Assembly (NCBI GenBank): GCA_013203185.1
Contig: JABMOS010000068.1
Location: forward strand, 19,889 to 83,888
Length of the DNA stretch: 64,000 nucleotides
Reading direction: 5' to 3'
Source of the DNA: Fidelibacterota bacterium
GTDB taxonomy: Bacteria > Fidelibacterota > UBA8477 > JABMPR01
Shown here: positions 36,299 through 57,042 of the stretch, one piece after another
Layout: every line of letters starts with the position of its first letter
How positions within the stretch are numbered: position 1 is the first letter of the stretch
Position numbers and translations under genes: made by a program
The notes under the pieces: model-generated
Databases searched by the model: none
What the model was told of the DNA's origin: nothing
What the model saw: the letters and a program-made list of their open reading frames with translations, nothing else

Positions 36299-36733
36299 AT
36301 GAAACAATTTGGATTAATTGTGGTGGCCATGTCCCTGGGACTCATGCTCATCCAGTGCGGGGGCGCAAAAGAAGAAAAGCCAGCGGCAAAGGCGGAGGTA
36401 TCTGCAGAGACTGCACCAGTGGCTGAAGCGACAGCTGCAACAGGGGAGATGACCTATGACCTGGCCAATGGCGAAGCTATCTACAAAAAATTGTGTTTTG
36501 CTTGTCATGACAATGGTTTGGCAGGTGCTGCAAAGCATACTGACCAGGAGCGTTGGGCAGAAAGTGCAGCCAAAGGCGTTCCTATGCTTATCAAGCATGT
36601 GACGGAGGGTTATCAGGGTAAGTATGGGATGCTACCCCCAAAAGGGACTTGTATGGATTGTACCGACCAGGATATCATCGATGCTGTGCACTATCAGTTA
36701 AAGATGGGTGGGAGCCTTAATAGCAGTAACTAA
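36299..36733 (+). CDS. cytochrome c5-like monohaem class I cytochrome c (probable lipoprotein)
   Basis: Signal with LIQC|GG, an A/E/K-rich linker, haem site CFACHDNG, distal ligand region YGMLPPKG, and the C..C pair (CMDC) typical of c5. Confidence 0.8.
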   Translation: MKQFGLIVVAMSLGLMLIQCGGAKEEKPAAKAEVSAETAPVAEATAATGEMTYDLANGEAIYKKLCFACHDNGLAGAAKHTDQERWAESAAKGVPMLIKHVTEGYQGKYGMLPPKGTCMDCTDQDIIDAVHYQLKMGGSLNSSN

Positions 36734-36766
36734 CTCAAGTATCCAAAGATATACTTCTTAAAAATG

Positions 36767-36795
36767 AAACCCCTGGCCCATGCCGGGGGTTTTTA
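36767..36795 (+). terminator. rho-independent terminator after cytochrome c5
   Basis: 8-bp stem CCCCTGGC / GCCGGGGG (one G-U pair), 4-nt loop, then T5. Confidence 0.7.
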
Positions 36796-36809
36796 ATTAC
36801 TGGGGATTG

Positions 36810-37233
36810 AATGGTATGTGCCCAAATAATGGGAAATGATGCAACCATATCTATCGGTGGTTCAAACGGCCACTTTGAATTAAATACTTTTAAACCGCTT
36901 ATTGCCACTAATGTATTACAATCAGCTCGTGTATTTATTTTTACCATAATTGCTCCGTAGGCATTCGTCCCAATATCCCCAGAATGGAACAACATCTTGA
37001 AAATTCTCTAATGCTGGTAACGGCTTTCAATACGCATATAGGTTATGAAAAAACCGCTAAAATTGTAAAGAAAGCGCAGGCAGAGAATAAAACATTGCAG
37101 CAAGCAGCGGTAGAACTCAAGCTTGTGACCAACAAGCAATTTGATGAATGGGTGAAGCCAGAAGATATGCGTGGAGCAATGGATTAGATGGTGTTCTATC
37201 CACCTTCTCCAGACAAACAATTAGATCTTCATA
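36810..37233 (+). pseudogene. fumC 3'-terminal fragment (degenerate duplicate of 56591..57030)
   Basis: Direct nucleotide alignment by eye with the 3' end of the intact fumC plus about 45 bp beyond its stop. The outer blocks are about 90% or more identical (roughly 9 mismatches in the first ~120 nt). The middle ~70 nt is degraded, with a length change and an in-frame TAG. ORF 36984..37187 encodes ..[59 protein letters not shown].., matching the FumC C-terminus. The N-terminal ~340 codons are absent. Confidence 0.9.
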
Positions 37234-37415
37234 ATCGAGATTTCGGAAACCTTTGATGAATAGACCGGAAGTATGTGCCCTGCTCTAATGGTTCGTGGCG
37301 CAAAATTCCCGAAATGATTCCTTGGATACACAGCTATAATTGTTAATATGTCGTACACGAATGATTATTATAGAACAAATAACACCACAACATAAATTTA
37401 ACCATCAGGGTATGT

Positions 37416-37964
37416 ATGGTATTTTCCAAATCGAGGGGCATGATGATGAGTAATAATCCGACCATAGCCGAACCGTTACCCAACGATATTCAGATTCTAA
37501 ACAGCATGCGCCAGATCATTCGTGCCATTGATGTACACTCACGGAAACTTAAGGCCCAGTATAACATAACTGGACCTCAGTTAATCTGCCTGGGAATCAT
37601 ACAAGCCAGCGGAAGTTCGACAGTGACCAAGATCGCTCACGAGGCTCATCTCAGCACCAGCACTGTCGTTGGCATTCTGGACCGCCTCGAGCATGAGGCC
37701 TACATTCTGCGTGAACGGGACCGTGTCGACAGACGAAATTGGAATGTTCACCTTACCGACCAGGCTGATCACTTACTGAAGATGGTTCCACCATCACTCC
37801 ATTACGGACTGTTGAACGCCCTACAATCCTTGCCTGAAGGCGAACAGGAAGTAATTGCCAACGCTTTCAAGCGAGTGGTGTCGCTTATGGGCGCAGAGAA
37901 TTTGGGTACAGCCCTCCTCCAGAAGATTACCCCCGTCGATAAGAGTAAGCCACCCAGTGAATAG
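37416..37964 (+). CDS. MarR family transcriptional regulator
   Basis: The sequence ITGPQLICLGIIQASGSSTVTKIAHEAHLSTSTVVGILDRLEHEAYILRERDRVDRRNWNVHLT is a winged-helix MarR pattern. The start is ambiguous among several Met codons. Confidence 0.8.
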   Translation: MVFSKSRGMMMSNNPTIAEPLPNDIQILNSMRQIIRAIDVHSRKLKAQYNITGPQLICLGIIQASGSSTVTKIAHEAHLSTSTVVGILDRLEHEAYILRERDRVDRRNWNVHLTDQADHLLKMVPPSLHYGLLNALQSLPEGEQEVIANAFKRVVSLMGAENLGTALLQKITPVDKSKPPSE

Positions 37965-38105
37965 TACCCATCAACCACCTACATAGTAGCCAATTGATTT
38001 ATTAGCTGACCCACGTTACTGACTGATTTCCCCTTTCATTAACCAGAACCATTTCTCCCGGGAACCTTGGCAAAATGATTTATTAAACCATTCAAAGGAT
38101 AATAA

Positions 38106-38801
38106 ATGACAACAACCGAAATCACTAAGAGCAAAAATCTGAGGACCAAGAGCGGTCCTGAATTCAGGATCATGGACTGTGCCCTCATCGCACTGGCAAC
38201 TGGCAAGCGAGCCAGGACTTTAAAGAATCTTCGAGATTATCTGGAAACTATTGAGCCGCAGAGCATCTATTATCATTTCTGGGGGAGTCTTCTGCGTCCT
38301 CGTTTCGAGGATGCTGAGTATCATAATGATTTTGCCGGTTGGGCGGCTCATTCACTCCATGACACCATGACGGCTGAGCGCCTGGGTATAGTAAATCCCC
38401 TGGCATTTCAGACTATGGAAGAATTGCGACAGGAACTCATGGACATTATTGATGAACGCATCGATGAGTTAGAAGTTCTACCTGCTTCTTCCAAGGATAG
38501 TCAGTTTGAATTTATCAGTTCAGACATGGTTGTATTCAGGTCAGATACAGTAATTAGGACAGCAGCCGAACTGTTGAAGGTCATACCCACGCTATCTCTG
38601 GGTAGCATCTTCTACCACTTCATTGATGCACGCCGGCGAACTGAGGTGTCCCATGACGATTTTAGCACCTGGCTCCAGCAATATGAATGTGCAGAAGCCG
38701 TTCAGGGGCTTGCCGAAATTGACCCATTCTTTACCTCTCTCAGCGCTTTGCGCCAGGAGATCACCGAAATACTAACTAAACACTTATCTGGAGACTTATG
38801 A
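38106..38801 (+). CDS. conserved-looking protein of unknown function with an internal two-fold repeat
   Basis: 231 aa. Two related segments are present: SIYYHFWGSLLRPRFEDAEYHNDFAGWAAHSL and SIFYHFIDARRRTEVSHDDFSTWLQQY. Its stop overlaps the start of the TreT-like gene (ATGA). Confidence 0.6.
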   Translation: MTTTEITKSKNLRTKSGPEFRIMDCALIALATGKRARTLKNLRDYLETIEPQSIYYHFWGSLLRPRFEDAEYHNDFAGWAAHSLHDTMTAERLGIVNPLAFQTMEELRQELMDIIDERIDELEVLPASSKDSQFEFISSDMVVFRSDTVIRTAAELLKVIPTLSLGSIFYHFIDARRRTEVSHDDFSTWLQQYECAEAVQGLAEIDPFFTSLSALRQEITEILTKHLSGDL

Positions 38802-40042
38802 GCACTCTTATCGATTCCTATACCAGCATCACAGGCCCGGATGTGGTAGAACAACTAAAACAGTTGGCCAAACCTATGCAGGGGATGCGTGTCGTTCACG
38901 TCAATTCGACGAAAGAGGGGGGAGGGGTGGCCGAGATCCTACACAAAATGATCCCACTCATGAACGATCTTGGGATTGAGACAAGCTGGGAAGTGCTTGA
39001 GGGAAACCCGGAGTTCTATTCCTGTACCAAAATGATGCATAATGCTATCCAGGGAAACCAAGTACCCATCCCTCAAATGCTTCTGGATGCGTATGAACAA
39101 ACAAATTTCGATAATGCTGAACGTCTACGTAAGAAGTTGGAGGAGGCTGATGTTGTTTTCATTCACGATCCACAACCTGCGGCTTTTCTGGGACATATGG
39201 AAAACCGTAAAGGTAAATGGATCTGGCGTTGTCATATCGATGCCAGTACTCCCTATCGACCGGTCTGGAAGTACCTGCGCCAACATATCCGTAACTATGA
39301 TGCTAGTGTTTTCTCATTGGCTAACTTTGCCCAAGCTTTACCACATCCTATTTACCTCATTCCTCCCAGCATCGATCCCTTGAATGACAAGAATTGCGAG
39401 CTCTCAGACGAGGAGGTGAATCAGGTATATTCTGATTTTGGTATAGACCCTGACCGACCTCTCCTGGTGCAGGTATCGAGGTTTGACCGCTTTAAGGATC
39501 CAATCGGTGTCATCGAGGCATTTCGCAAAACAAAACCATTTGTCCCCACGCTACAGCTCGTGCTGGCAGGTGGTGGTGCCAGCGATGATCCTGAAGGAAG
39601 AGCTGTTTTGGCAGAGGTTCAACAAGCGGCCCAGGGAGAGTCTGATATCCATATTCTTGACCTGCCGGGTGATGCTCATAGGACTATAAATGCACTGCAG
39701 CGTGCGGCAACCATTGTTGTCCAGAAATCCCTCCGCGAAGGTTTCGGCCTGACGGTGACGGAAGGCATGTGGAAACAAAAACCAGTCATAGGCGGCGATA
39801 CGGGTGGGATTCGTCTGCAGGTAGTAAATCATCATACAGGGTTTCTGGTGAACTCTCCAGAGGGAGCGGCACTTAGAATCCGCTATCTCATGCGCAATCA
39901 AGGGAAACTGTTAGAGATGGGTCTAAAGGCAAAAGCCTTTGTAAAGGAAAATTTTCTTATCACCAGACATCTTCGCGAATATCTCACACTCATGCTTTCC
40001 CTGCGCTCCACTGCTAAGGATAGAATTTATCTTGATTATTAA
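38798..40042 (+). CDS. treT: TreT-like GT4 glycosyltransferase (trehalose glycosyltransferring synthase family)
   Basis: Close collinearity with my recollection of archaeal TreT: VVHVNSTKEGGGVAEILH, HDPQPAA, WRCHID.S.P, IPPSIDPL..KN, QVSRFD..KD, DDPEG, QKS.REGFGLTVTE.MWK.KPVIG..GGI..Q. It might instead act as an accessory GT of the OtsA/OtsB pair. Confidence 0.75.
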   Translation: MSTLIDSYTSITGPDVVEQLKQLAKPMQGMRVVHVNSTKEGGGVAEILHKMIPLMNDLGIETSWEVLEGNPEFYSCTKMMHNAIQGNQVPIPQMLLDAYEQTNFDNAERLRKKLEEADVVFIHDPQPAAFLGHMENRKGKWIWRCHIDASTPYRPVWKYLRQHIRNYDASVFSLANFAQALPHPIYLIPPSIDPLNDKNCELSDEEVNQVYSDFGIDPDRPLLVQVSRFDRFKDPIGVIEAFRKTKPFVPTLQLVLAGGGASDDPEGRAVLAEVQQAAQGESDIHILDLPGDAHRTINALQRAATIVVQKSLREGFGLTVTEGMWKQKPVIGGDTGGIRLQVVNHHTGFLVNSPEGAALRIRYLMRNQGKLLEMGLKAKAFVKENFLITRHLREYLTLMLSLRSTAKDRIYLDY

Positions 40043-40056
40043 CAGAAGGATAAGCC

Positions 40057-40833
40057 GTGCGTATACTTAATCGTGAATTTGATTTTGAAGGCTTCTACGG
40101 TGCTCTAAAAGGGGATGGGCCGAAGCTGTTGCTCCTTGATTATGATGGTACTCTAGCCCCGTTTCGCACCGAGCCCAAACTGGCTGTGCCTTATCCAGAA
40201 GTTCTACCTTTATTGAATGAAATCATTCAGTCACCCCAATTACGGGTCGTTATAATCTCAGGTAGAGCCATCGAAGAACTGAAACCGCTGATAGTATTAA
40301 ATCACCCCATCGAAATGTGGGGATCCCACGGCAGGGAACGTCTCTTGCCAAATGGTTCTTACATCCGGATGGAGGTGTCCAAAAAGCAGGAGGACGGTAT
40401 GAGCATGGCTATTCAGGCTGTGTTTGATATTGAAGCGATGGTTCGATCAGAGTCCAAACCAAGCGCTGTGGCTTTTCACTGGCGAAAGCTGTCTGCAACT
40501 AGTGTCCCTGGCGTGGCAGGAAAAATAAGATCAACTCTAGACAAAATCGCATTATCACATAATCTCGAAGTTAAATCCTTTAATGGAGGTCTTGAGATTT
40601 TGGCTCCTGGGATGGATAAAGGGCAAGCTGTCCGCGAGGTTCTGAATGATCTGCCCCTGCAGGCGACAATTGCCTATGTGGGTGATGATCTTACCGATGA
40701 AGACGCGTTCAAGGAGCTCAACTACAAAGGACTATCAGTCCTTGTGGGAGACACTCCGCGAAAAACACAAGCTGATCTTTGGCTGCAACCCTCTGAGGAA
40801 CTCATCTGGTTTCTCGAGAAATGGAAAAATTAA
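40057..40833 (+). CDS. otsB: trehalose-6-phosphate phosphatase
   Basis: HAD motifs LLLDYDGTLAPF, ISGR and YVGDDLTDEDAF. GTG start. Its stop overlaps the otsA start region. Confidence 0.85.
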   Translation: MRILNREFDFEGFYGALKGDGPKLLLLDYDGTLAPFRTEPKLAVPYPEVLPLLNEIIQSPQLRVVIISGRAIEELKPLIVLNHPIEMWGSHGRERLLPNGSYIRMEVSKKQEDGMSMAIQAVFDIEAMVRSESKPSAVAFHWRKLSATSVPGVAGKIRSTLDKIALSHNLEVKSFNGGLEILAPGMDKGQAVREVLNDLPLQATIAYVGDDLTDEDAFKELNYKGLSVLVGDTPRKTQADLWLQPSEELIWFLEKWKN

Positions 40834-42398
40834 TGAAACAAAACACAATGACCCCAGCAGGGGCAATACATGCCTGGAATGTGGGCAAACAGCACAAAAT
40901 GGTTATCGTATCCAATCGTTTGCCTGTTGTCGTCCAGGATAAAGGCGAAGGGCAGTGGGAGGTGAAATCCGGCTCAGGAGGTCTGGTTACCGCCCTGGCA
41001 CCGGTATTGCGGGATCGCGGTGGAACCTGGATCGGTTGGCCAGGTCATGTGGATAAGGATTCTCAGGGGGTCGATGATCTATTACGGAAACATGATGAGG
41101 AGATAGGATATTCACTGCGTCCGGTTATGCTGGATGATGAAGAAGTGGAAAATTATTATAAGGGGTTCTCAAATGAAACATTGTGGCCCCTCTTCCATGA
41201 TCTCATCGATCACAGTCAGTTCAAACCAGAGTACTGGGACGCCTATCAGCGAGTGAATCGCAAGTTTGCAGAGGTCGTCAAATCAAATATAGAACCGGAA
41301 GACTTCATCTGGATCCACGACTATCACTTGATCAGTGTTATTAGCTATCTCCGGGAGATGGGCGTAAAAAACAAGGTTGGTTTTTTTCTTCACATTCCCT
41401 TTCCCCCCACGGACATCTATTCCCGACTTCCATCAAGATTAGAGGTTTTGAATGCCATGCTGGCGTACGATCTGGTTGGTTTTCAGTCAGCGCGTGACAG
41501 ACGAAATTTTGTACAGAGTGTACGCTCCTTAAAGGACAAGCCCAAGATCAAAGGAAAAGGGCAGGTCATAGGGATCCAGGGAGAAATGGGCAAGCTTAAA
41601 GCTGGTGTATTCCCTATCAGTATTGACTACAAGGAATTTAACAGTGCTGCGCAAAGCGCTGAGGTAGCTCAGAGTAGCAGCGTATTGCGTCAACTTTTTC
41701 CCAACCAGAAGATAATTCTGGGCGTGGACCGTTTGGATTATACAAAGGGTATCCCTGAGCGATTGCGATCCTTCCGTGAAGCTCTGCGACGTTTTCCTGA
41801 GCTGATTGGACAATTAAGCATGATTCAGATACTGGTGCCCAGCCGGCGAGATATCCACAAATACGAGGATTTAAAAATCGAGATTGAGAGGATGATTGCT
41901 GAGATCAATGGCGAATTCACTCGGCCAGGATGGCTGCCCATCGAGTATCAATTTCGATCATTGGATCGTAAGGAGTTGCTGGCCTATTACCGGGTGGCAG
42001 ATATCATGATGGTCACACCGCTGAAAGATGGAATGAATCTAGTGGCCAAAGAGTATTGTGCCTGCAACATAGAGGGCAATGGCGTTTTGATTCTCAGTGA
42101 GTTTGCAGGAACGGCTGCCCAGCTAAAATTAGGGGCTATACTGGTGAACCCTCATGATACAGTGGAATGTGCAGAAGCAATTTTCATGGCCTTTCACATG
42201 GAAGAAAAAGATCGCAAAATCAAGATGCAGAAACTGAGGCGTAATGTAAATCGGAGCGACATTTTCGACTGGGTCGATAGCTTCCTAAAGGCGGCATTCT
42301 CAATCGGACTTGGCAGTTTTCCACTTCTGGCGGACTATCGGCCTCTCAAGGAGGGCCGAGAGGCTGTAATCAGGGTGGAGTCAACAGGGACTCTCTAA
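40821..42398 (+). CDS. otsA: alpha,alpha-trehalose-phosphate synthase (GT20)
   Basis: GT20 motifs IVSNRLPV, GSGGLVTAL, WIGWPG, FSNETLWPLFH, IWIHDYHL, FFLHIPFP, LG.DRLDYTKGI and TPLKDGMNLVAKEY. An alternative coupled start is TAATG at 40833. Confidence 0.9.
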   Translation: MEKLMKQNTMTPAGAIHAWNVGKQHKMVIVSNRLPVVVQDKGEGQWEVKSGSGGLVTALAPVLRDRGGTWIGWPGHVDKDSQGVDDLLRKHDEEIGYSLRPVMLDDEEVENYYKGFSNETLWPLFHDLIDHSQFKPEYWDAYQRVNRKFAEVVKSNIEPEDFIWIHDYHLISVISYLREMGVKNKVGFFLHIPFPPTDIYSRLPSRLEVLNAMLAYDLVGFQSARDRRNFVQSVRSLKDKPKIKGKGQVIGIQGEMGKLKAGVFPISIDYKEFNSAAQSAEVAQSSSVLRQLFPNQKIILGVDRLDYTKGIPERLRSFREALRRFPELIGQLSMIQILVPSRRDIHKYEDLKIEIERMIAEINGEFTRPGWLPIEYQFRSLDRKELLAYYRVADIMMVTPLKDGMNLVAKEYCACNIEGNGVLILSEFAGTAAQLKLGAILVNPHDTVECAEAIFMAFHMEEKDRKIKMQKLRRNVNRSDIFDWVDSFLKAAFSIGLGSFPLLADYRPLKEGREAVIRVESTGTL

Positions 42399-42425
42399 AG
42401 TCTAAATTTTATTAAGGAGCAACAT

Positions 42426-43172
42426 ATGTTACGCAGCGCGATAGACATTTTGGGGTATAACCTGAAGGCATTGGATGGGGAAATTGGAAAATCAAAAGAC
42501 TTCCTCTTCGATGACCAGCATTGGGCCGTACGATATCTCATGGCTGAAACTGGACGTTGGCTACAGGGTAAACGGGTGCTAATCTCACCAATATCAATCG
42601 AACAACCAGATCGTGATGCACGCGTTTTTCCAGTGAATTTAACCAAACAGCAGATTGAAGACGCGCCTAATGAGGGTGAAGATATGCCTGTATCCCACAA
42701 ATTTGAAATCGAGTTCTTCAAGTATCATCAATGGCCCTATTACTGGAATGGTGGGTATCCCTGGGGCATCCTCATCCCAATGGAAAGGACTAATATGAAT
42801 AAGCCTGCTGGGAGAGACTCTCTAGATGATATTGAAGGTGATAAAAATCTCCGCTCCCTGAACGAGGTCAAGGGCTATAACATTCAAGCGACCGATGGCC
42901 ATATTGGTCATGTGGAAAATCTGATCCTCGATGACGAAACCTGGACCATTCGCTACCTTGTGGTGGATACACGTAATTGGCTGCCGGGAAAGCGAGTGCT
43001 GGTTTCACCTTCATGGGCTGAAAAAATCGATTGGGCAAAAAACACTGTAGACGTCAATATGAGCAGAGATCAAATCAAGAATAGCCCCGATTACGATGAC
43101 TCAAAACTCATGACTCGGAAATTCGAAAACAGTTTATTCAAGTATTATGGAGTCCCAGGGTACTGGTTATAG
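42426..43172 (+). CDS. tandem PRC-barrel domain protein
   Basis: Two PRC-barrel units: LGYNLKALDGEIGKSKDFLFDDQHWAVRYLMAETGRWLQGKRVLISP and VKGYNIQATDGHIGHVENLILDDETWTIRYLVVDTRNWLPGKRVLVSP. Confidence 0.8.
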   Translation: MLRSAIDILGYNLKALDGEIGKSKDFLFDDQHWAVRYLMAETGRWLQGKRVLISPISIEQPDRDARVFPVNLTKQQIEDAPNEGEDMPVSHKFEIEFFKYHQWPYYWNGGYPWGILIPMERTNMNKPAGRDSLDDIEGDKNLRSLNEVKGYNIQATDGHIGHVENLILDDETWTIRYLVVDTRNWLPGKRVLVSPSWAEKIDWAKNTVDVNMSRDQIKNSPDYDDSKLMTRKFENSLFKYYGVPGYWL

Positions 43173-43336
43173 CGAAGATTTCGCCCAATCTGGATTAGCT
43201 CGTGAACCTCATTTACTTCGTTACAGATGGGAATCATGACCAGGGTGAGTATGGATTGATTCGCCTGGCAAGAAGTCGGGGTGGTCACCGGAGTGGAATG
43301 TCGAGGTGGTGGCAAAGAGAATAACCTCAGGACTGC

Positions 43337-44467
43337 ATGTCTCGAATCAACTCCCCGAATACTTGCATCGAAAACATAACTGAACTGGAAGCTTTACACA
43401 TGGACTTATTTTTAATCTATCTGGATAAACATTCATCAACCCTGCTCTTAGTAGCCAGTTTATTGGGTTTTTCTCTGGTGATCCGCTATGGTTTTGCACC
43501 TAAGATTCTGGAACTGTTTCGTCGGGTGAAGGGTGTCAAGATCTCTGTAGAATTGCTTTATCAACCATTGAGTAATTTGAGCATACCTGTCTTCAGTATG
43601 TTTATCACACCCATTCTCAGCCTACCCACACAATTCAATGCCGTTTTCCAACATATGATGCAGATTTGGCTAATTGGTGCTTTAGCCTGGTTGCTCATTC
43701 GGATCTTGGTCCTTTTTAAAGAATTAATTCTAGGTCAGTATCAGCTTGACGCTAAAGACAACTTGAAAGCCAGGCAGATCAGCACCCAACTACTAATGAT
43801 AGAACGTGTTGTTAATGCAGTGATTCTGTTAATTGCAGGATCCATCATCCTTATGAGTTTTGATAAAGCGCGTGAAATCGGATTCAGTTTACTTGCCTCA
43901 GCTGGTATTGCAGGAATTATTCTTGGTTTGGCTGCTCAACGCAGTCTGGCAACACTATTTGCAGGTATCCAACTGGCTATCACCCAGCCTATCCGCATCG
44001 ACGATGTGGTCATTGTGGAGCATGAATGGGGATGGATAGAGGAGATAACTCTGACGTTTGTTGTTGTGAGAATATGGGATCAAAGACGCCTGGTCCTGCC
44101 AATTACCTACTTCATAGAACACCCCTTCCAGAACTGGACCAGGAAGCGAGCTGACCTGTTGGGCACTGTGTATCTGTATGTTGATTACAAAATGCCCTTG
44201 GACGATTTGCGGACTGAATTGGACAGAATTGTCAAAGAATCCCCGTTGTGGGACGGTCGAGTGGCAAAAATTCAGGTCACCAATGCAACGGAAAAGTCGG
44301 TTGAGCTGCGCGCCCTGGTAAGCGCAGAAAATGCTTCTAACGCCTGGGATCTTCGCTGCCTGGTGCGTGAAGATCTGCTCACTTACATACAACGGCACTT
44401 CCCTGAAAGTCTTCCCAGGATAAGACTCGACCGAGGTTTTCCAGAGCAAGGGGAGAGCAATGTCTGA
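43337..44467 (+). CDS. MscS-family small-conductance mechanosensitive channel
   Basis: TM helices followed by the pore helix and beta domain: AGIAGIILGLAAQRSLATLFAGIQLAITQPIRIDDVVIVE..WG.IEEITLTFVVVRIWD.RRLVLP. The true start may be the internal MDLFLIYL. Confidence 0.85.
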   Translation: MSRINSPNTCIENITELEALHMDLFLIYLDKHSSTLLLVASLLGFSLVIRYGFAPKILELFRRVKGVKISVELLYQPLSNLSIPVFSMFITPILSLPTQFNAVFQHMMQIWLIGALAWLLIRILVLFKELILGQYQLDAKDNLKARQISTQLLMIERVVNAVILLIAGSIILMSFDKAREIGFSLLASAGIAGIILGLAAQRSLATLFAGIQLAITQPIRIDDVVIVEHEWGWIEEITLTFVVVRIWDQRRLVLPITYFIEHPFQNWTRKRADLLGTVYLYVDYKMPLDDLRTELDRIVKESPLWDGRVAKIQVTNATEKSVELRALVSAENASNAWDLRCLVREDLLTYIQRHFPESLPRIRLDRGFPEQGESNV

Positions 44468-45308
44468 TATCATTCTCAAACACGGAAACAGTCTCATCCA
44501 ACACGGGTCGTTAAGTGACCGCGTATATATCATGAAACTTGATCCTGGTGAATGTGAGGAGGTGATTGATTTTGTTGAAAAGCTGGCTACTGAAAAGGGC
44601 TATTCAAAAATCTTTGCGAAGGTACCATTATCTTTAATTACAACATTTATTGCTGGAGGTTATGAAGAAGAAGCACGCATTCCGGAATTAGGGGAATCTC
44701 CCAGCGGTATTGCTTTCATGTCCAACTTCCTTGTGAAAAGACGTAAAAAACCCGGTAAGACTCACGAAATCATGCAAGTCAAATCTGCCTCGCTTATCCG
44801 CGGTGTTCCTCGAAAAAGCACTCCACTCTCAAGCGAATTCTCTATCAAGGAGGCGGAAATAGCTGATAGTGCTGACCTGGCCTTGCTTTATCGAGAAGTC
44901 TTTGCCTCCTACCCTTTTCCCATTTATGACCCTCTCTTTATTGCCAACAGCATGACTGAGGATGTTCGCTATTTTATCATCAGTCACAAAGGAGAAATTG
45001 TGGCAGCTGCGGCCGCAGAAATGGACTATGACACCCGCAGCGTCGAGATGACTGACTTTGCAACTAACCCCGGCCATAGGGGACGTCAATTTGGTCAGAT
45101 TCTTCTCGATCATATGGAAGTTGCTATGATTCAGGAACCCATAGACACGACCTATACCATAGCCCGTGCTGTCTCTCACGGAATGAATATTACATTTGCT
45201 CGTTCGGATTATGAATTTGCCGGTACGCTTATAAACAATACAAATATCAGTGGGTCTATCGAGAGCATGAATGTCTGGTATAAACAAATTGTCCATCCCG
45301 CCAATTAG
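44460..45308 (+). CDS. AblB/YodP-like GNAT acetyltransferase (putative beta-lysine N-acetyltransferase family)
   Basis: The N-terminal GNSLIQHGSLSDRVYIMKL followed by ..KGYSKIFAKVP...GGYEEEARIP...AFMS.FL..RR, plus a C-terminal GNAT core (HRGRQFGQILL), matches my recollection of the ablB-type family. It overlaps the mscS stop by 8 nt. No lysine 2,3-aminomutase gene is in the window. Confidence 0.6.
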   Translation: MSDIILKHGNSLIQHGSLSDRVYIMKLDPGECEEVIDFVEKLATEKGYSKIFAKVPLSLITTFIAGGYEEEARIPELGESPSGIAFMSNFLVKRRKKPGKTHEIMQVKSASLIRGVPRKSTPLSSEFSIKEAEIADSADLALLYREVFASYPFPIYDPLFIANSMTEDVRYFIISHKGEIVAAAAAEMDYDTRSVEMTDFATNPGHRGRQFGQILLDHMEVAMIQEPIDTTYTIARAVSHGMNITFARSDYEFAGTLINNTNISGSIESMNVWYKQIVHPAN

Positions 45309-45516
45309 AAAAATGAATTCCAGGCTGAATAAGTAGACGAACTGAATGAGCAAAAAAAATCAAGGGTTGGATGATTATAGCCAGGCTGTGAAATCAACGT
45401 TTTCACAAAATCAAACACCTGGGGAAAATGACAGAGGCTAGAGATAACGAATAGGCAAGCTATCTGGGAGTTGAGACTCATAGTAAAGCTTCACACAAAG
45501 TGACCCTGGTTCCACT

Positions 45517-46869
45517 ATGCCTGAAAAAAACGGTGAGCACATGATGAAACATGAAGATAGACAATCGCATTATCGTAAAGACAGCCTGACGCTGGTCGGA
45601 GCTATTGCACTTGGCACCGGTGTAATGATTGGTGCAGGCATATTTGCCTTGACGGGTCAGATGGCCCAGATGACTGGGAGCCTTTTCCCTCTGGCTTTTC
45701 TTTCGGCTGCGGTGATTGTGGCATTCAGCGCATACTCTTACGTCAAGATGTCGAATGCTTATCCTTCGGCCGGCGGGATTGGCATGTACCTGAAAAAGGC
45801 TTATGGCAGCACCGTGACAACAGCCTTTCATGCCCTCCTCATGTATTTTTCCATGGTGATTGCCCAGAGTTTTCTGGCTCGTACATTTGGATCTTATACC
45901 TTACAATTGTTTGGCATTGACGATACCAGCTTGTTGGTACCGACACTGGGTGTGGGCTTGTTACTGGTGGCTTTTCTCATCAATCTCGCTGCCAACCGGA
46001 TGATAGAGGGTGTTGCGTCGGTGCTTGGATTTATCAAGATTGGGGGCATCGTTTTATTTGGAGTCGTCGGTGTAATGGTGGCTGACAAGGTGGAAGTAAA
46101 TATTTCAACAGCTGTTCCTGATGCCTCAATGGCGGGTTTCCTAGGCGCAACAGCCCTTGGGATTCTAGCCTTTAAGGGGTTTACCACGATTACCAACAGT
46201 GGTTCGGAGTTGAAAGACCCGCACCGAAATGTGGGTAGAGCCATCATGATCTCCATCGCGCTTTGTGTTGTGATTTATACGCTGGTGGGTTTTGCTGTGG
46301 CAAGTAACCTGTCACTTCAGGAAATCATCGAATCAAAAAATTACTCCTTAGCTGCCGCTGCAAGACCGGCTCTGGGCGAATATGCAGTCTGGTTTACGGT
46401 TGTGCTGGCCATGCTGGCAACAGCTGGCGGGATTATCGCAAGCATCTTTGCTGTTTCACGGATGCTGGCCATGCTTACGGAGATGAAACTCGTCCCCCAT
46501 AGCCATTTTGGCATGCCCGGTAGCATCCAGAAGCATACACTGGTCTACACCGTAGTTCTTGGTTTGCTCCTGACGGCTTTCTTTGATCTGGCGCGCATTG
46601 CAGCCCTGGGAATTATTCTCTATCTGGTTATGGATATGGCAATCCATTGGGGTGTATTGCGTCATCTCAGGGAAGAAATTAGCGCCAATCGTGCCATTCT
46701 TATTGGAGCAATCGTTCTTGACCTGACTGTTTTGACCGGCTTTCTCTGGGTTAAAATTAATAGCGATCCAAGCGTGGTTGGTGTAGCTGGTGCTCTCATG
46801 ATGGCTATTTTGATCATGGAAGTACTGTTTCTGCGCTATAACCCGATTGTAGAGCAGGGGAGCGACTAG
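45517..46869 (+). CDS. APC superfamily amino acid/polyamine permease
   Basis: 450-aa 12-helix protein. The sequence LVGAIALGTGVMIGAGIFALTGQ and the overall layout are typical of the APC family. Confidence 0.85.
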   Translation: MPEKNGEHMMKHEDRQSHYRKDSLTLVGAIALGTGVMIGAGIFALTGQMAQMTGSLFPLAFLSAAVIVAFSAYSYVKMSNAYPSAGGIGMYLKKAYGSTVTTAFHALLMYFSMVIAQSFLARTFGSYTLQLFGIDDTSLLVPTLGVGLLLVAFLINLAANRMIEGVASVLGFIKIGGIVLFGVVGVMVADKVEVNISTAVPDASMAGFLGATALGILAFKGFTTITNSGSELKDPHRNVGRAIMISIALCVVIYTLVGFAVASNLSLQEIIESKNYSLAAAARPALGEYAVWFTVVLAMLATAGGIIASIFAVSRMLAMLTEMKLVPHSHFGMPGSIQKHTLVYTVVLGLLLTAFFDLARIAALGIILYLVMDMAIHWGVLRHLREEISANRAILIGAIVLDLTVLTGFLWVKINSDPSVVGVAGALMMAILIMEVLFLRYNPIVEQGSD

Positions 46870-46942
46870 AGTAGACACACAGGAAATGCTCTATTCATTG
46901 CATAAAAATGGTTCAGAAACAAAATACATGAGGTAGAATCAG

Positions 46943-47878
46943 ATGGGAATTTTATACGAAGTACCAAGCTTAACCAATTGGGCAATTTGGCTTTTTATTC
47001 TCTTCGCTTTAATGGCATTTAACGAACTTGGTCGCACGACCAAGTGGGGAGGACTTGTACTTTTTCTAATTGTGCCTATCGTCCTAACTCTATTTGTCTG
47101 GCCACAAACTGCAGCAGCAGGTAATGAGTTTGGAACGGGAAATTGGTTCAATTGGGTTAAAACGTATTCAGCCCTGGCAGGCTGCCTTGGATTTATGGCT
47201 ATCCGCTATATTCCAGGACTTGTAAAAAAGAAATGGGTCTTGGTATTCCCGCCTGCGATTCTTGCTCTCAATATCCTTGAAGCAAGTGTTCGAGATTTTC
47301 AGGTCTATGCTTATGGTGCCTGGGATGGAGCGTATATTGACCATTTGTGGGTGATGTCAGGATCATGGAATATCATGAATGGTATCGCCGGCTTACTTAA
47401 CATCATAGTCATCAGCGGCTGGCTTGGTATTATTATATCCAAAGACAAGACAAAGGATATGATCTGGCCCGACATGATCTGGCCGTGGATCATTGCTTAT
47501 GATTTGTGGAACTTCGCCTATACCTATAATTGTATTGCCGATCATTCATTTTACAGTGGTCTGGCCTTGTTGCTTGCCTGCACAATACCAGCTTTCTTTA
47601 TTAAAAAAGGAGCCTGGTTGCAGCATCGTGCGCAGACCCTGGCACTGTGGATTATGTTTGTGATGACAATCCCTTCATTTGCAGATCGAATGGCTCCCGT
47701 TCCAACCACCCACAATCCAACTGTCTTTTTTGCTGTGAGCTTTCTCGCTTTAATGGCTAATGTTGCATTGGTCATTTACCAATTTATCAGGATTAGAAAG
47801 CGCAAATTGAATCCTCTTAAAGATGAGATTTATGCGGAAACGGAAGCATATAAGCACGTTATTGCAGAGAATTCTTGA
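46943..47878 (+). CDS. polytopic membrane protein of unknown function
   Basis: 311 aa with about 8 hydrophobic helices, rich in W/Y. It contains an in-frame 15-bp tandem duplication (DMIWP DMIWP). No family confidently recognised. Confidence 0.6.
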   Translation: MGILYEVPSLTNWAIWLFILFALMAFNELGRTTKWGGLVLFLIVPIVLTLFVWPQTAAAGNEFGTGNWFNWVKTYSALAGCLGFMAIRYIPGLVKKKWVLVFPPAILALNILEASVRDFQVYAYGAWDGAYIDHLWVMSGSWNIMNGIAGLLNIIVISGWLGIIISKDKTKDMIWPDMIWPWIIAYDLWNFAYTYNCIADHSFYSGLALLLACTIPAFFIKKGAWLQHRAQTLALWIMFVMTIPSFADRMAPVPTTHNPTVFFAVSFLALMANVALVIYQFIRIRKRKLNPLKDEIYAETEAYKHVIAENS

Positions 47879-47898
47879 TTTAGAGAGTGTAATAACAA

Positions 47899-47975
47899 GA
47901 GGTCATGAAGTGTCTCTAAATTCAAAGGACATATACTCCTGCTGGTATTGACTTATCACAGCAATCAAGCTTAAA
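47899..47975. repeat. intergenic repeat R1, copy A (homologous to 58474..58550)
   Basis: The aligned blocks are GAGGTCATGAAGTGTCTCTaaAtTcAAagGACAtATACTCCtGcTGGTATTGACtTATCACA and GAGGTCATGAAGTGTCTCTtaActtAAacGACAaATACTCCgGtGGGTATTGACgTATCACA. The repeat contains a TTGAC(T/G)-N17-TT(A/C)AAA promoter-like spacing pointing at the downstream gene. Confidence 0.8.
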
Positions 47976-48092
47976 ACAGTATTGATGCTGAGAAAGTGCT
48001 ATTCAACCAATCCCAGGAGCATCAATTTGAATGGCTAACCTTTGCGATGGGGCATAGAAATAATATACTAGTCATGTTTTAAGAATATTGAT

Positions 48093-48989
48093 ATGGAAAA
48101 ATCACACAAACACAATCATAGTCATGACGTTCAAATATCCCACGGGAAAGCTTTTGCTTTAGGCATTGGGCTAAATATTGCATTTGTAATCATAGAGATT
48201 GTTTATGGTTTGATTGCAAATTCATCAGCTTTATTTGCCGATGCTGGACATAATGCAAGCGATGTACTAGGACTTGCTTTTGCATGGGCAGCTGCTTGGA
48301 TGGCCACCATAAAACCAAGCGGCAAGTACACCTATGGTCTTCGAAAAACAACTATTCTTGTTTCTATTCTCAATGCATTACTACTTTTTGGCGCTGTCGT
48401 TATTATTGCGTGGAATGCTATAGAAAAACTTAAAGAACCGGAGCCTGTTTTTGGTACTCAGATTATAATTGTTGCAGCAATAGGAGTAATCATAAATACC
48501 GTTACTGCTTTATTGTTCTTAAAAGGGCAGAAAAGTGACCTTAATATTAAAGGTGCATTTCTTCATATGGCAGCTGACGCTGGTGTTTCACTTGGTGTCG
48601 TGGTTGCAGGGTTACTCATAAATATAACGGGAATGCTATGGATTGACCCCGTAACTAGCTTTGTAATTATACTGGTTATTGTTTGGGGAACATGGAACCT
48701 GTTTACCGCTTCGATTGACCTGGCATTGGACGCTGTTCCCAAACACATTGACGTTGGAGAAGTAAAAGCTTTATTGTCTAGCCAAAAAGGAGTAAAAGGC
48801 ATTCACGATTTACACATCTGGGCGTTAAGCACTTCACAAGTTGCCTTATCGGTACACCTATATATTCCTAATGGAGCTAACGAAAATTTCCTTGCCGATA
48901 TGCAAAAAGAACTTGAACAGGAATATGGAATCAAACATATAACAGTTCAGATTGAGAATGATAAAATTGATTGCGAAACTGAATGTTGA
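48093..48989 (+). CDS. czcD: cation diffusion facilitator (CzcD/ZitB-type) divalent metal efflux protein
   Basis: His-rich N-terminus (HKHNHSHD), TM2 motif SSALFADAGHNASD, TM5 motif FLHMAADAGVSLGV, and the C-terminal cytoplasmic domain (VKGIHDLHIWALS). By eye it looks more AT-rich than its neighbours. Confidence 0.9.
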   Translation: MEKSHKHNHSHDVQISHGKAFALGIGLNIAFVIIEIVYGLIANSSALFADAGHNASDVLGLAFAWAAAWMATIKPSGKYTYGLRKTTILVSILNALLLFGAVVIIAWNAIEKLKEPEPVFGTQIIIVAAIGVIINTVTALLFLKGQKSDLNIKGAFLHMAADAGVSLGVVVAGLLINITGMLWIDPVTSFVIILVIVWGTWNLFTASIDLALDAVPKHIDVGEVKALLSSQKGVKGIHDLHIWALSTSQVALSVHLYIPNGANENFLADMQKELEQEYGIKHITVQIENDKIDCETEC

Positions 48990-49125
48990 ACCTTTTTTAA
49001 TGATAATAAAAAATATTACGCTGTACGTTGTCAAAGTAATTCGGACCAATCCGCTCAAGTCCAGCCGAACCAATGGATAATCTTCTTCCAGGAAAAAATA
49101 ATCAAGAAGTAAAACTGTGTCAAAA

Positions 49126-49357
49126 TAGTGTCAAGTAATATTAGAAGTGGTTGCGTTATTTGTCTTAATTATCCCACCCAACAGGAAAATATCCCAGCAT
49201 GTATCCAAAGTATAAATGAATGATTATGGGTCTTTTAGAGGTGTACCCGGGGTCTGATCCGCTACCGCGGATTGGGTCGAACCGGCACGGCTTTCATGTC
49301 GCAGCGAAGTTCGAAGGACGTAGCCGGAAAGGGCCGAGGGATTTTAAGCCCTGAATA
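49126..49357. repeat. intergenic repeat R2, copy A (homologous to 59474..59686); structured core 49241..49357 with a tRNA-like motif on the minus strand
   Basis: The core ..CGAACCGGCACGGCTTTCATGTCGC(A/G)GCGAAGT..AAGGACGTAGCCGGAAAGGGCCGAGGGATTTTAAG(C/T)CCTGAATA is shared by both copies. A second shared block (TAGTGTCAA...TATTTGTCT.A.TTATC) lies about 70 nt upstream. In copy A a GATCCGC-tac-GCGGATT hairpin replaces half of the T-arm-like hairpin of copy B. Confidence 0.8.
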
Positions 49358-49451
49358 ATTAACCAAAGCAACACACTCATTAATCCTAGGAAGACTCGAA
49401 TTCCGGATCAATAGTGAATTGAATGCATAGAATAGGAATAAGGAGACATAT

Positions 49452-51134
49452 ATGACCGTTGCTGAGTTGATTATTAAAGCACTTGAGGTCGAAGGGGTGA
49501 AGTACGTTTTTGGCGTGCCTGGAGAAGAAACTGAAGATCTGCTTTTTGCCCTTGAGCAGTCGTCTATCATCTTTGTTCCCACCCGTCATGAACAGGGTGC
49601 AGCCTTCATAGCTGATGTATATGGGAGAACCACGGGCAAAGCAGGCGTATGCCTGGCTACCCTGGGACCTGGAGCCACAAACTTGATCACAGGTATTGCT
49701 GATGCCTACCTGGATAAGGCACCAGTGGTAGCTATAACAGCTCAGGCCAGTTCGGTTCGTGTCCATAAAGAAAGCCACCAGGTTCTGGACATTCTCAATA
49801 TGTTGAAACCCATCACCAAATGGAACGCCAGCATCCAAAATCCTCTGGCGGCCAGTGAAATCGTTCGCAAAGCATTTAAGATGGCCCAGTCAGAGAAACC
49901 GGGTCCTACCCATATTGAATTACCTGAAGATGTAGCGGCTGAAGTCACCAGCTTGCCTGCTCTGGTATCTGGAGGTGTTCGAAGAAGTGCTCCTGACCAC
50001 AAGGCTATTCAGGTCGCCATGGAATTGCTGGGTCAAGCCCAGGCACCCATTATCCTTGCTGGAAATGGCGCTATCCGCAAGCGGGCCAGTAAGCATATCA
50101 GAGAATTTGTCGCCCAGACGGACATTCCAGTGATCTCCACCTTCATGGGCAAGGGTGCCATTGATGATAGAGATCCCCATTCACTGTACACCATTGGCGT
50201 CCCTGGCAGGGATTACCAGATGTGTGCCCTGGAACGAGCTGATCTGGTTTTAGCCATTGGTTATGATATTGGAGAATACGATCCTGCGAAATGGAACCCT
50301 ACCGGTGATAAACAGATCATTCACATCGATTTTGATCCCGCCGAAGTCTATGAATACTACCAGCCGAAGGTTGAGGTCATCGCCGATATATCAGCCAGCA
50401 TGTGGGAATTGAATCGTCAGGTCGCTGAAAAGCAGCTCAAGTTCCATCCCACCTGGTTTGCCAATCTCCGCGAAACGATTGAAAGCGATTTTAGAGCCTA
50501 CAGGATGAAGCCAGGGGAGGCATTCACCGTGCCAGGCAGTCTCCATATTATCCGAGAATACATGCGCCCAGGTGACATGATGCTCTCAGATGTGGGTAGC
50601 CACAAAATGTGGATCGGTCGCAACTTTCCAGTCTATGAAGCGAATTCCACCTTTATCTCAAATGGGCTGGCCACCATGGGTATCGCCCTGCCCGGTGGCA
50701 TCGGTGCAAAATTAGCCCATCCTGAAAGACGGGTGGTAGCCGCCATGGGAGATGGGGGTTTTCTCATGAATGTACAGGAGATCGAAACAGCAAAACGCAT
50801 GGGTCTGGGATACCCCATCATCGTCTTCAATGACAATGATTATGGACTCATTCGCTGGAAACAGACCAGCAGTACGGGCAAAACCTTTGGCACGTCCATT
50901 AGCAACCCTGATTTTGTTAAATTAGCAGAGAGCTTTGGAATCGAAGGCCACTCACCCAAGACTCTGGATGAGTTGGATGCCACCTTAAAGCGGGTGATCG
51001 AGGGCCAAGTCCTCAGTATCGTGGAGATCGCCATTGATCCGCGTGTCAATTTCGAGCTCACACAAAAATTGAATCAGAACATCTGTGAACGCTTTGAATT
51101 TCCTGAATTAAGCAGCAAAGGAGAACCCTCATGA
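49452..51134 (+). CDS. ThDP-dependent acetolactate-synthase-like enzyme; candidate 2-oxoglutarate decarboxylase by context
   Basis: 560 aa with ELIIKALEVEGVKYVFGVPGEE, RHEQGAAFIADVYGR.TGKAGVCLATLGPGATNL, and the ThDP motif GDGGFLMNVQEIETA...NDN. A strong AAGGAG RBS is present. Its stop overlaps the SSADH start (ATGA). Confidence 0.85.
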   Translation: MTVAELIIKALEVEGVKYVFGVPGEETEDLLFALEQSSIIFVPTRHEQGAAFIADVYGRTTGKAGVCLATLGPGATNLITGIADAYLDKAPVVAITAQASSVRVHKESHQVLDILNMLKPITKWNASIQNPLAASEIVRKAFKMAQSEKPGPTHIELPEDVAAEVTSLPALVSGGVRRSAPDHKAIQVAMELLGQAQAPIILAGNGAIRKRASKHIREFVAQTDIPVISTFMGKGAIDDRDPHSLYTIGVPGRDYQMCALERADLVLAIGYDIGEYDPAKWNPTGDKQIIHIDFDPAEVYEYYQPKVEVIADISASMWELNRQVAEKQLKFHPTWFANLRETIESDFRAYRMKPGEAFTVPGSLHIIREYMRPGDMMLSDVGSHKMWIGRNFPVYEANSTFISNGLATMGIALPGGIGAKLAHPERRVVAAMGDGGFLMNVQEIETAKRMGLGYPIIVFNDNDYGLIRWKQTSSTGKTFGTSISNPDFVKLAESFGIEGHSPKTLDELDATLKRVIEGQVLSIVEIAIDPRVNFELTQKLNQNICERFEFPELSSKGEPS

Positions 51135-52489
51135 AAGCCATCAATCCAGCCACCGGCGAAATTATAAAAGATTATCCTGAACATTCCAGTCAAGAGGTTC
51201 AACACATTCTAAGCAGCACACAATCAGCTTGGGAGGATTGGCGACGAACCAGTTTTGTTCATCGTTCTACACTCATGGGGCGAGCTGCAGATGTCCTGCG
51301 CAATAATTCTGAAAAATATGCAAGGATCATGTCAGTGGAAATGGGCAAGGTGATCACGGAAGCCAGGGCGGAGGTGGAAAAATGCGCCTGGGTTTGTGAA
51401 TTTTATGCTGAGCATGCTGAAACCTTTCTCCAGGATGAAATGATAAAAACTGAAGCTTCGAAGAGTTTCGTGTCCTTTGATCCCATGGGGATCGTCCTGG
51501 CTGTCATGCCCTGGAATTTTCCCTTCTGGCAAGTGTTCAGATTTGCTGCCCCAGCACTCATGGCTGGCAATGCTGGTGTGTTAAAACATGCTTCCAATGT
51601 ACCGGGGTCGGCTTTGGCCATTGAAGAGGTTTTTCATGAAGCAGGTTTCCCTCCTGATATATTTCGAACTCTGATGATCCCAGCCAAACAGGTTGAAGAC
51701 GTCATCAGGGATCCCCGAGTCCGCGCCGTGACCCTGACAGGGAGTGAGGGTGCCGGGATGCAGGTTGCCTCCATTGCAGGTAGTGAGTTGAAGAAAACCG
51801 TGCTGGAATTAGGCGGTTCAGATCCCTATATCGTGTTGGAGGATGCTGATATTCCGGCCTGTGTTGCCATGTCAGCCAAGTCGAGAATGATCAATACAGG
51901 ACAAAGTTGTATTGCTGCCAAGCGCTTTATCGTCGTTGAGTCAAAGGTGGCTGAATTTGAAAAGGCACAAGCGGAGATTCTCAGCCAGCTTCGAATTGGT
52001 GATCCTCAGGCGGAAGACACACAGGTTGGACCAATTGCCAGGGCCGATCTCCGGGATGAACTTCATGACCAGGTGACTCGCACCCTTGAGGCTGGAGGCC
52101 GTCTGGTAACAGGAGGTACATTTGTGGATGGGCCAGGAGCTTTTTATCAGCCAACGGTTATCTCAGATGTTAAAAAGGGGATGCCCATTTATTCTGAAGA
52201 AACATTTGGACCTGTTTCAGCCATTATACCAGTCAAAGACGCAGAGGAAGCCATTGCCGTGGCCAACGATTCAGAGTTTGGGTTGGGAGGCTCCTTATGG
52301 ACTGCCGATGTGAACAGGGGTGAGGCATTGGCCCGACGGGTGGAATCAGGGGCTGTTTTTGTGAATGGTATGACCCTGTCGGATCCGCGGATGCCGTTTG
52401 GCGGAATCAAGAAATCTGGCTACGGCAGGGAGCTTGGTACCTATGGAATTAAAGAATTTGTAAATGTAAAATCCATATGGATAGCCTGA
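51131..52489 (+). CDS. NAD(P)-dependent succinate-semialdehyde dehydrogenase (Sad/YneI type)
   Basis: Collinear with my recollection of E. coli YneI: INPATGE, MPWNFPFWQVFR, LKHASNVPG, ELGGSDPYIVL, NTGQSCIAAKRFIV, DLRDELH.QV, ANDSEFGLGGSLWT, FVNGM..SDPRMPFGGIKKSGYGRE. Confidence 0.9.
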   Translation: MKAINPATGEIIKDYPEHSSQEVQHILSSTQSAWEDWRRTSFVHRSTLMGRAADVLRNNSEKYARIMSVEMGKVITEARAEVEKCAWVCEFYAEHAETFLQDEMIKTEASKSFVSFDPMGIVLAVMPWNFPFWQVFRFAAPALMAGNAGVLKHASNVPGSALAIEEVFHEAGFPPDIFRTLMIPAKQVEDVIRDPRVRAVTLTGSEGAGMQVASIAGSELKKTVLELGGSDPYIVLEDADIPACVAMSAKSRMINTGQSCIAAKRFIVVESKVAEFEKAQAEILSQLRIGDPQAEDTQVGPIARADLRDELHDQVTRTLEAGGRLVTGGTFVDGPGAFYQPTVISDVKKGMPIYSEETFGPVSAIIPVKDAEEAIAVANDSEFGLGGSLWTADVNRGEALARRVESGAVFVNGMTLSDPRMPFGGIKKSGYGRELGTYGIKEFVNVKSIWIA

Positions 52490-56984: not shown

Positions 56985-57042
56985 ATGGTGTTCTAGCTAC
57001 TTTCTCCAGACAATCAATCAGATCATAGGAGCGAAGGTTGGA

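Follow-up and report, generated by a model that had tools for sequence, protein, structure and literature searches.

A probable accessory stress-protection cluster joining two trehalose routes to an MscS-family channel in an uncultured marine Marinisomatota bacterium

The 64-kb window analysed here comes from the fragmented, 82% complete metagenome-assembled genome of an uncultured marine bacterium of the Marinisomatota (Marinimicrobia). It carries a run of eight genes, marR, orfY, treT, otsB, otsA, a PRC-barrel gene, mscS and ablB, which joins two routes of trehalose synthesis to a mechanosensitive channel of the MscS family. We consider it rather probable that this cluster is an accessory stress-protection island of Marinisomatota and a lineage-specific variant of the common orfY-treT-otsB-otsA module, real but fairly ordinary. 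TreT is predicted to make trehalose from nucleoside diphosphate (NDP)-glucose and glucose, and OtsA followed by OtsB would make it by combining UDP-glucose with glucose-6-phosphate, via trehalose-6-phosphate. To this module the lineage appears to have added a MarR regulator upstream and, downstream, a tandem PRC-barrel protein and an MscS-family channel, which would vent solutes when the external osmolarity falls. The identities of the genes and the conservation of their order rest on direct evidence, and enzyme activities, co-transcription, control by MarR and the stress that triggers the cluster are deduced. An earlier note on this DNA had described dual trehalose routes joined to an MscS-family channel with a MarR gene ahead, and family matches together with the same arrangement in relatives bear this description out. 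Its further idea that solute synthesis is coupled to solute release holds at the level of the gene cluster, in which trehalose genes stand beside the gene of a mechanosensitive channel.

What is the likely function of the glycosyltransferase family 4 (GT4) protein encoded in this run? Gene calls were taken from the open reading frame (ORF) list of the window, and families were assigned with Pfam and NCBIfam profiles. The 414-aa product of treT (38798-40042, + strand), which the earlier note had labelled TreT-like, is a full-length orthologue of TreT, the trehalose glycosyltransferring synthase, and not a look-alike of the PimA-like activator glycosyltransferase of Thermoproteus tenax. Its alignments with TreT of T. 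uzoniensis (structure 6ZJ4; 420 bits, residues 5-402) and of P. horikoshii (2X6Q; 364 bits) run over the full length, and it retains both the E-x7-E catalytic block (REGFGLTVTE) and RCHID in the alignment. The TreT-specific N-terminal domain PF21269 (193.6 bits) spans residues 34-179, and the GT4 C-terminal domain PF00534 is present (75.3 bits). The second route is encoded by otsB (40057-40833, + strand), for a trehalose-6-phosphate phosphatase of 258 aa (TIGR00685, 101.8 bits against a cut-off of 68; PF02358, 85.9 bits), and by otsA (40821-42398, + strand), for a GT20 trehalose-6-phosphate synthase of 525 aa (PF00982, 480.9 bits). Two profile scores weigh against these assignments. TreT reaches only 395.8 bits on NF041139, below the cut-off of 775 of this Thermococcales-specific model, and on TIGR02400 OtsA, with 534.6 bits, narrowly misses the cut-off of 564.85. 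Judged by these alignments and scores, the window TreT is closer to the Thermoproteus type than to the Thermococcales model. The possibility that OtsA is instead GGPS was ruled out (TIGR02398, 342 bits vs 535 for OtsA). A precedent for redundant TreT and TPS/TPP (trehalose-6-phosphate synthase/phosphatase) routes is found in S. acidocaldarius, in which both are induced and needed under salt stress (PMC7688234).

The earlier note had also suggested that the GT4 protein is an activator rather than a second synthase. In this proposal, the protein would act on OtsA/OtsB as a non-catalytic or secondary activator, within a trehalose synthase complex like that of T. tenax, and the cluster would mirror the archaeal msc-gt-tpsp operon in a bacterium. 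The resemblance lies in the gene classes. The T. tenax operon groups TPS/TPP genes with genes for a GT4 and for an MscS-like channel, the latter co-transcribed with the trehalose genes (Zaparty et al. 2013, PMC3634074), and the logic proposed for it is synthesis on stress and release via the channel. The window likewise holds the GT4, TPS/TPP and MscS-like classes together on one strand in one cluster, a constant treT-otsBA linkage would suit a physical complex, and Zaparty et al. speculated that unknown glycosyltransferases may activate other prokaryotic TPS enzymes (PMC3634074). However, TTX_1305, the activator of T. tenax, belongs to the PimA-like GT4 proteins and is not TreT-like, and activation strictly needs the fused TPSP (PMC3634074), whereas the window encodes OtsB and OtsA by separate genes and has a GT4 that matches active TreT enzymes of known crystal structure over its entire length, catalytic block intact. 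This GT4 is, moreover, paired with OrfY, a hallmark of the treT locus rather than of the tpsp locus. The channels also differ, with 197 aa and a membrane-only architecture in T. tenax and 376 aa with a beta-domain in the window. Because the window lacks two defining features of the T. tenax complex, the fused TPSP and the PimA-like glycosyltransferase, we regard an activator role of the GT4 protein as very improbable, and of the supposed mirror of the archaeal arrangement only the clustering of synthesis with a valve is retained. A 384-aa PimA-like GT4 (Glyco_transf_4 and Glycos_transf_1) that resembles the T. tenax activator in size and family is encoded in another locus (L010, 14326-15480), directly after otsA of an orfY-treT-otsB-otsA cluster.

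A second T. tenax locus, the orfY-treT pair reportedly described by Kouril and colleagues in 2008, shares with the window a DUF5752/OrfY gene directly upstream of a gene for a TreT-type GT4, and the two window proteins match 4CSO and 6ZJ4, respectively. The window host differs in being a mesophilic bacterium, and to its pair are added marR upstream and, beyond treT, otsB-otsA, the PRC-barrel gene, mscS and ablB.

The orfY-treT-otsB-otsA core recurs far beyond the host lineage. A cross-phylum scan with one genome per species yielded 458 DUF5752 relatives, and treT directly follows the DUF5752 gene in 77 of the best 80 loci of the 458, which were the loci examined. In 50 loci the sequence beyond treT was 5 kb or longer; among these, otsA, mostly accompanied by otsB, lies downstream of treT on the same strand in 34, and an MscS-family gene is present in nine, seven of them in the order otsB-mscS-otsA, with all three MscS domains confirmed by Pfam. 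These widespread orfY-treT-otsB-(mscS)-otsA clusters share with the window the four core genes, identically ordered, and often have an embedded MscS-family gene. They differ from it in that a canonical MscS (Pfam first, second and third domains) is encoded between otsB and otsA, whereas the window has a different MscS subtype after otsA and the PRC-barrel gene. Homologues of the window MarR, PRC-barrel and AblB genes were found in none of the 80 cross-phylum loci. Three clusters (L007, 11940-14832, and similarly L008 and L047) encode a sugar ABC importer, consisting of a solute-binding protein and two permeases, between treT and otsB, and they also carry mscS between otsB and otsA.

Within the lineage, the arrangement is both conserved and sparsely distributed. 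The window's own genome (G000) was compared with those of 22 other species of the host genus, including the congeners G001, G007 and G013, and with two further relative loci, L096, from an ENA Marinisomatota contig whose OrfY is 80% identical to that of the window, and L097; the loci of G007 and G013 are also designated L092 and L093. DUF5752 occurs in only three of the 22 other species, which indicates that the cluster is accessory. The order marR-orfY-treT-otsB-otsA-PRC-mscS is found in both G007 and L096, and G013 has the same order without the PRC-barrel gene. L097 retains marR-orfY-treT-otsB-otsA and has a TrkA_C/Na-H-exchanger pair in place of PRC-mscS. G001 has orfY-treT-otsB-otsA-PRC, followed by marR, a gene for a 92-aa protein, a Na/solute symporter gene, ablB and a kamA-like gene. 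MarR orthologues with 66-68% identity are encoded upstream of orfY in G007, G013, L096 and L097, and MscS orthologues with 62-73% identity are encoded after the trehalose genes in G007, G013 and L096. Given this conserved arrangement, the local unit comprises seven genes rather than eight, and the conserved local core, as defined by gene order, is marR-orfY-treT-otsB-otsA-(PRC-barrel)-mscS. The survey of gene neighbourhoods that the earlier note had put forward thus finds the arrangement conserved in relatives and the trehalose genes and MscS recurring together in other phyla.

The two genes at the downstream end of this core are tied to the trehalose genes in their distribution, as both the PRC-barrel gene and the window MscS subtype are confined in the genus to genomes with the trehalose genes. 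The PRC-barrel gene (42426-43172, + strand) encodes a tandem protein of 248 aa (PF05239, 40.3 bits), whose internal repeat of 39.7% identity is also visible in the sequence. The mscS gene (43337-44467, + strand) begins 939 nt past the otsA stop on the same strand and encodes a 376-aa MscS-family channel (PF00924, 45.5 bits) with the beta-domain at residues 204-269 and hydrophobic segments before it; the NCBIfam MscS equivalog cut-offs were not reached. Several relatives show variations on these two genes or their surroundings. In G007, the PRC-barrel gene (L092, 5981-6700) aligns through two in-frame stops, one TAG and one TAA, leaves a shorter ORF of 224 aa and may be decaying. The pair that replaces PRC-mscS in L097 (12123-14830) consists of a TrkA_C protein and a Na/H exchanger (CPA2) with TrkA domains, another ion-homeostasis partner of the module. 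In G013, mscS is followed by genes for a myo-inositol-1-phosphate synthase and a CDP-alcohol phosphatidyltransferase that is archaetidylinositol-phosphate-synthase-like (L093, 12191-14218), which could serve to produce inositol lipids or else an inositol-phosphate as a solute.

The earlier note had placed the run inside a segment bounded by fumC repeats, and the duplicate of the fumC 3' end is real (36810-37233 vs 56591-57030). The two copies form a direct repeat of ~90% identity over ~430 nt, the upstream one bearing a deletion of 16 nt, and bracket a ~19-kb segment that contains the trehalose cluster, ogdA/ssaD, acnA and fumC. Such a repeat is compatible with the scar of a single-crossover insertion or of a duplication. 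Differences from G007 appear immediately after mscS. In G007, mscS is followed at once, after 95 nt (L092, 7914-8009), by the gene pair for a thiamine diphosphate (ThDP) enzyme and SSADH, whose window counterpart lies at 49452-52489. The window holds an extra block of ~4.9 kb (44460-49400) with flanking repeats, which contains ablB and genes for an APC permease (45517-46869) and a DUF5692 protein (46943-47878) as well as czcD (48093-48989). By this comparison, these four genes count as added here with respect to G007. Neither the region upstream of marR nor the APC/DUF5692/czcD block gave a tblastx or blastn match to the relative loci.

How far would a single transcript extend through the run? 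All eight genes are present on the + strand in the ORF list, as the earlier note had reported, and each of the three start/stop overlaps that it had listed was seen on direct reading. The orfY stop and the treT start share ATGA (38798-38801), a 4-nt overlap. The otsA ATG at 40821 precedes the otsB stop TAA (40831-40833) and creates a 13-nt overlap, which an alternative otsA ATG at 40833 would reduce to only 1 nt. The ablB ATG at 44460 lies within the 3' end of mscS (44460-44467; 8 nt) and has the Shine-Dalgarno sequence GGGGAG 7 nt upstream. Further Shine-Dalgarno sequences precede the GTG start of otsB (GAAGGA) and, by 6 nt, the PRC-barrel gene (AAGGAG). No terminator-like site was found on the + strand between marR and ablB in a consensus scan, and no Rfam element was detected in 36500-49500 at E <= 0.1.

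The first gene, marR (37416-37964, + strand), encodes a MarR-family transcription regulator of 182 aa (PF01047, 42 bits) and is preceded on the + strand by an operator/promoter-like element identified by promoter scan (37343-37371). Within this element, the 25-nt motif TTAATATGTCGTACACGAATGATTA (37343-37367) overlaps a sigma-70-like TTAATA-17-TATTAT. Nowhere else in the window does the motif occur, and by chance 0 matches would be expected; G007 and G013 both conserve it upstream of marR amid otherwise diverged DNA. It is degenerate in G001 and L097, and the G001 copy, which has three mismatches, lies 241 nt upstream of orfY, with marR elsewhere. The motif therefore precedes whichever gene comes first in four species. 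This is the best sign available that the transcript begins at this point, with marR as the leading gene of the unit in this genome. We infer that the motif is a candidate MarR operator/promoter. Together with the tight or overlapping spacing, the Shine-Dalgarno sequences and the lack of a + strand terminator-like site or Rfam element, the presence of the motif before the first gene supports co-expression, as far as the DNA sequence can speak to it. Transcription would most likely proceed from this MarR-controlled promoter/operator through at least otsA and the PRC-barrel gene, and mscS-ablB would be either the tail of the marR-started transcript or served by an extra promoter in the spacer before mscS.

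Several observations weigh against such a continuous transcript. The exact 25-nt motif is missing in the closest relative, L096, and the sigma-70 scan performed no better than chance overall (18 sites vs 21 expected). In addition, long spacers interrupt the run, with 141 nt between marR and orfY and 164-227 nt before mscS, where every relative has 180-250 nt. The range in the window reflects the start codon of mscS, which possibly is Met22, 21 codons further in, because relatives align from residue 22 or 43; with this start, the spacer between PRC and mscS would grow from 164 to ~227 nt. The long spacers before orfY and mscS make internal promoters possible. A consensus scan for internal promoters in the run gave nothing above chance. 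It is thus conceivable, and in our estimate possible but not likely, that the run consists of two or three adjacent, separately regulated units (marR; orfY-treT-otsB-otsA-PRC; mscS-ablB) that rearrangement in the accessory region brought side by side. The modular gene content fits this alternative, since the PRC-barrel gene is absent from G013, the G001 cluster has no mscS and its marR heads symporter-ablB-kamA, and a TrkA_C/Na-H exchanger pair stands in for mscS in L097; the direct repeats of the fumC 3' end on either side of the block also favour separate units. However, no terminator-like structure divides the run, the sole motif conserved between species is the one upstream of the first gene, neither the marR-orfY nor the PRC-mscS spacer contains a motif conserved between relatives, and the order from marR to mscS is kept in four genomes. 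The eight-gene operon of the earlier note accordingly survives in part: the eight genes and their tight or overlapping spacing stand, and its extent is undercut by the joining of ablB in this genome only, the absence of the PRC-barrel gene in G013 and the spacer that always precedes mscS.

The eighth gene, ablB (44460-45308, + strand), encodes an AblB-type GNAT of 282 aa, a putative beta-lysine N-acetyltransferase, whose match to TIGR03827 covers model positions 2-266 (299.5 bits vs a cut-off of 205.1). The ablA-ablB operon makes N-epsilon-acetyl-beta-lysine in methanogens, and the same solute has been reported in green sulfur bacteria; the NCBIfam models of this system are TIGR03820 and TIGR03827. 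The window resembles the methanogen operon in that its GNAT exceeds the AblB equivalog cut-off and in that the G001 ablB orthologue (70% identity) lies directly upstream of a gene for a 495-aa KamA-family radical SAM protein. It differs in that ablB follows mscS and has no adjacent aminomutase gene; no lysine 2,3-aminomutase (AblA) gene lies anywhere in the 64-kb window. A tblastn search of 45201-45620 with the G001 KamA protein gave no meaningful kamA remnant after ablB, and the spacer between ablB and the APC permease gene folds no better than shuffled sequence (z 0.42).

A partner for AblB is nevertheless encoded elsewhere in the genome, which has two KamA-family genes, a 347-aa one on contig C152 and a 3' fragment on contig C59. 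The latter contig opens inside the gene (C59:1-727) and retains its last 95 codons, 88% identical to the gene after ablB in G001; the same 124-aa ORF follows in both genomes, and the assembly lacks the ~395 codons of the N-terminal part. From this match, the KamA-family partner of AblB exists in this genome and is cut by the contig edge. The G001 protein scores 268 bits against AblA (cut-off 525) and 239 against TIGR00238 (cut-off 199), and because it falls under the AblA cut-off, its substrate amino acid is uncertain. In this genome alone, the AblB-type acetyltransferase would be translationally coupled to mscS and, together with the KamA-family aminomutase, could produce N-acetyl-beta-lysine as a second solute. 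It counts against the reading of the cluster as a whole that, in a fragmented genome of the given completeness, the junction between ablB and the APC permease gene depends on the assembly.

What is the role of the protein encoded directly before TreT? The product of orfY (38106-38801, + strand) is a 231-aa protein with two internal repeats, which had previously been noted as unknown and belongs to DUF5752 (PF19027, 256.6 bits), the OrfY family of T. tenax. Its sole PDB match is 4CSO, the T. tenax OrfY (E 1e-20, residues 14-223). An AlphaFold (AF2) model built on 20 homologues (pLDDT 89) superimposes on 4CSO with template modelling (TM) scores of 0.81-0.86, and a structure search with this model found no other fold relatives in the PDB. 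DUF5752 has 37 columns that are invariant across phyla, including the two repeats H-F-W / Y-H-F and N-D-F-x-x-W / D-D-F-x-x-W. When 1.84 billion representative proteins were searched with a profile, 1034 DUF5752 proteins came up, some of which are natural fusions. DUF5752 is joined to an MscS beta-domain in P0269 (457 aa) and P0236 (364 aa), and it forms the C-terminal part of P0220 (745 aa), after a maltokinase cap, and of P0264 (542 aa), after an alpha-amylase domain. P0205 and P0239 (526 and 713 aa) also have a C-terminal DUF5752, and their N-terminal parts have no Pfam match. No paper on DUF5752 or OrfY turned up in the literature searched.

The fusions support a regulatory or adaptor role of OrfY with trehalose/alpha-glucan enzymes and MscS and are no proof of mechanism. 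An alternative is that OrfY/DUF5752 is the functional centre of the cluster. As a sensor or adaptor, it would connect MscS channels with TreT and further trehalose/alpha-glucan enzymes, and synthesis would be tied to release in physical as well as transcriptional terms. The fusion partners favour such a sensor/adaptor role, as do the ATGA that couples orfY to treT in translation, the position of orfY ahead of treT in 77 of the 80 loci, the unique fold and the invariant columns. The alternative is nonetheless unlikely in our judgement, if by no means negligible, given that the PDB entry 4CSO carries the label 'transcription factor', that no MscS gene lies near DUF5752 in 41 of the 50 loci and that the window MscS keeps its own full C-terminal region. 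In a more specific form, for which we would claim still less, OrfY would be a sensor/adaptor of two pseudo-symmetric repeats that ties TreT to MscS-type channels, here as a free subunit acting in trans and made in step with TreT, and elsewhere fused after an MscS beta-domain. If this speculative proposal were true, solute synthesis and release would be coordinated at the protein level, and the OrfY-TreT-MscS assembly might also include the lineage-specific PRC-barrel protein.

The reading of the cluster as an accessory stress-protection island leaves room for more than one physiological trigger. A pelagic marine lineage meets little salinity change, which counts against an osmotic role, and cold, pressure, desiccation or starvation may act as the trigger in place of osmotic stress. 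Marinisomatota is an abundant uncultured phylum of the ocean, and the presence of the island in few species hints at niche-specific osmotic or related stress.

The present analysis corrects two annotations, in that the "unknown" protein is OrfY/DUF5752 and the GT4 protein is TreT and not an activator. The dual-route trehalose module, often joined to MscS, emerges as a common, mobile bacterial building block, of which we found no description in the literature searched. The main remaining interest lies in the function of OrfY and, to a lesser degree, in that of the PRC-barrel protein, and the linkage and fusions of OrfY make this question testable.

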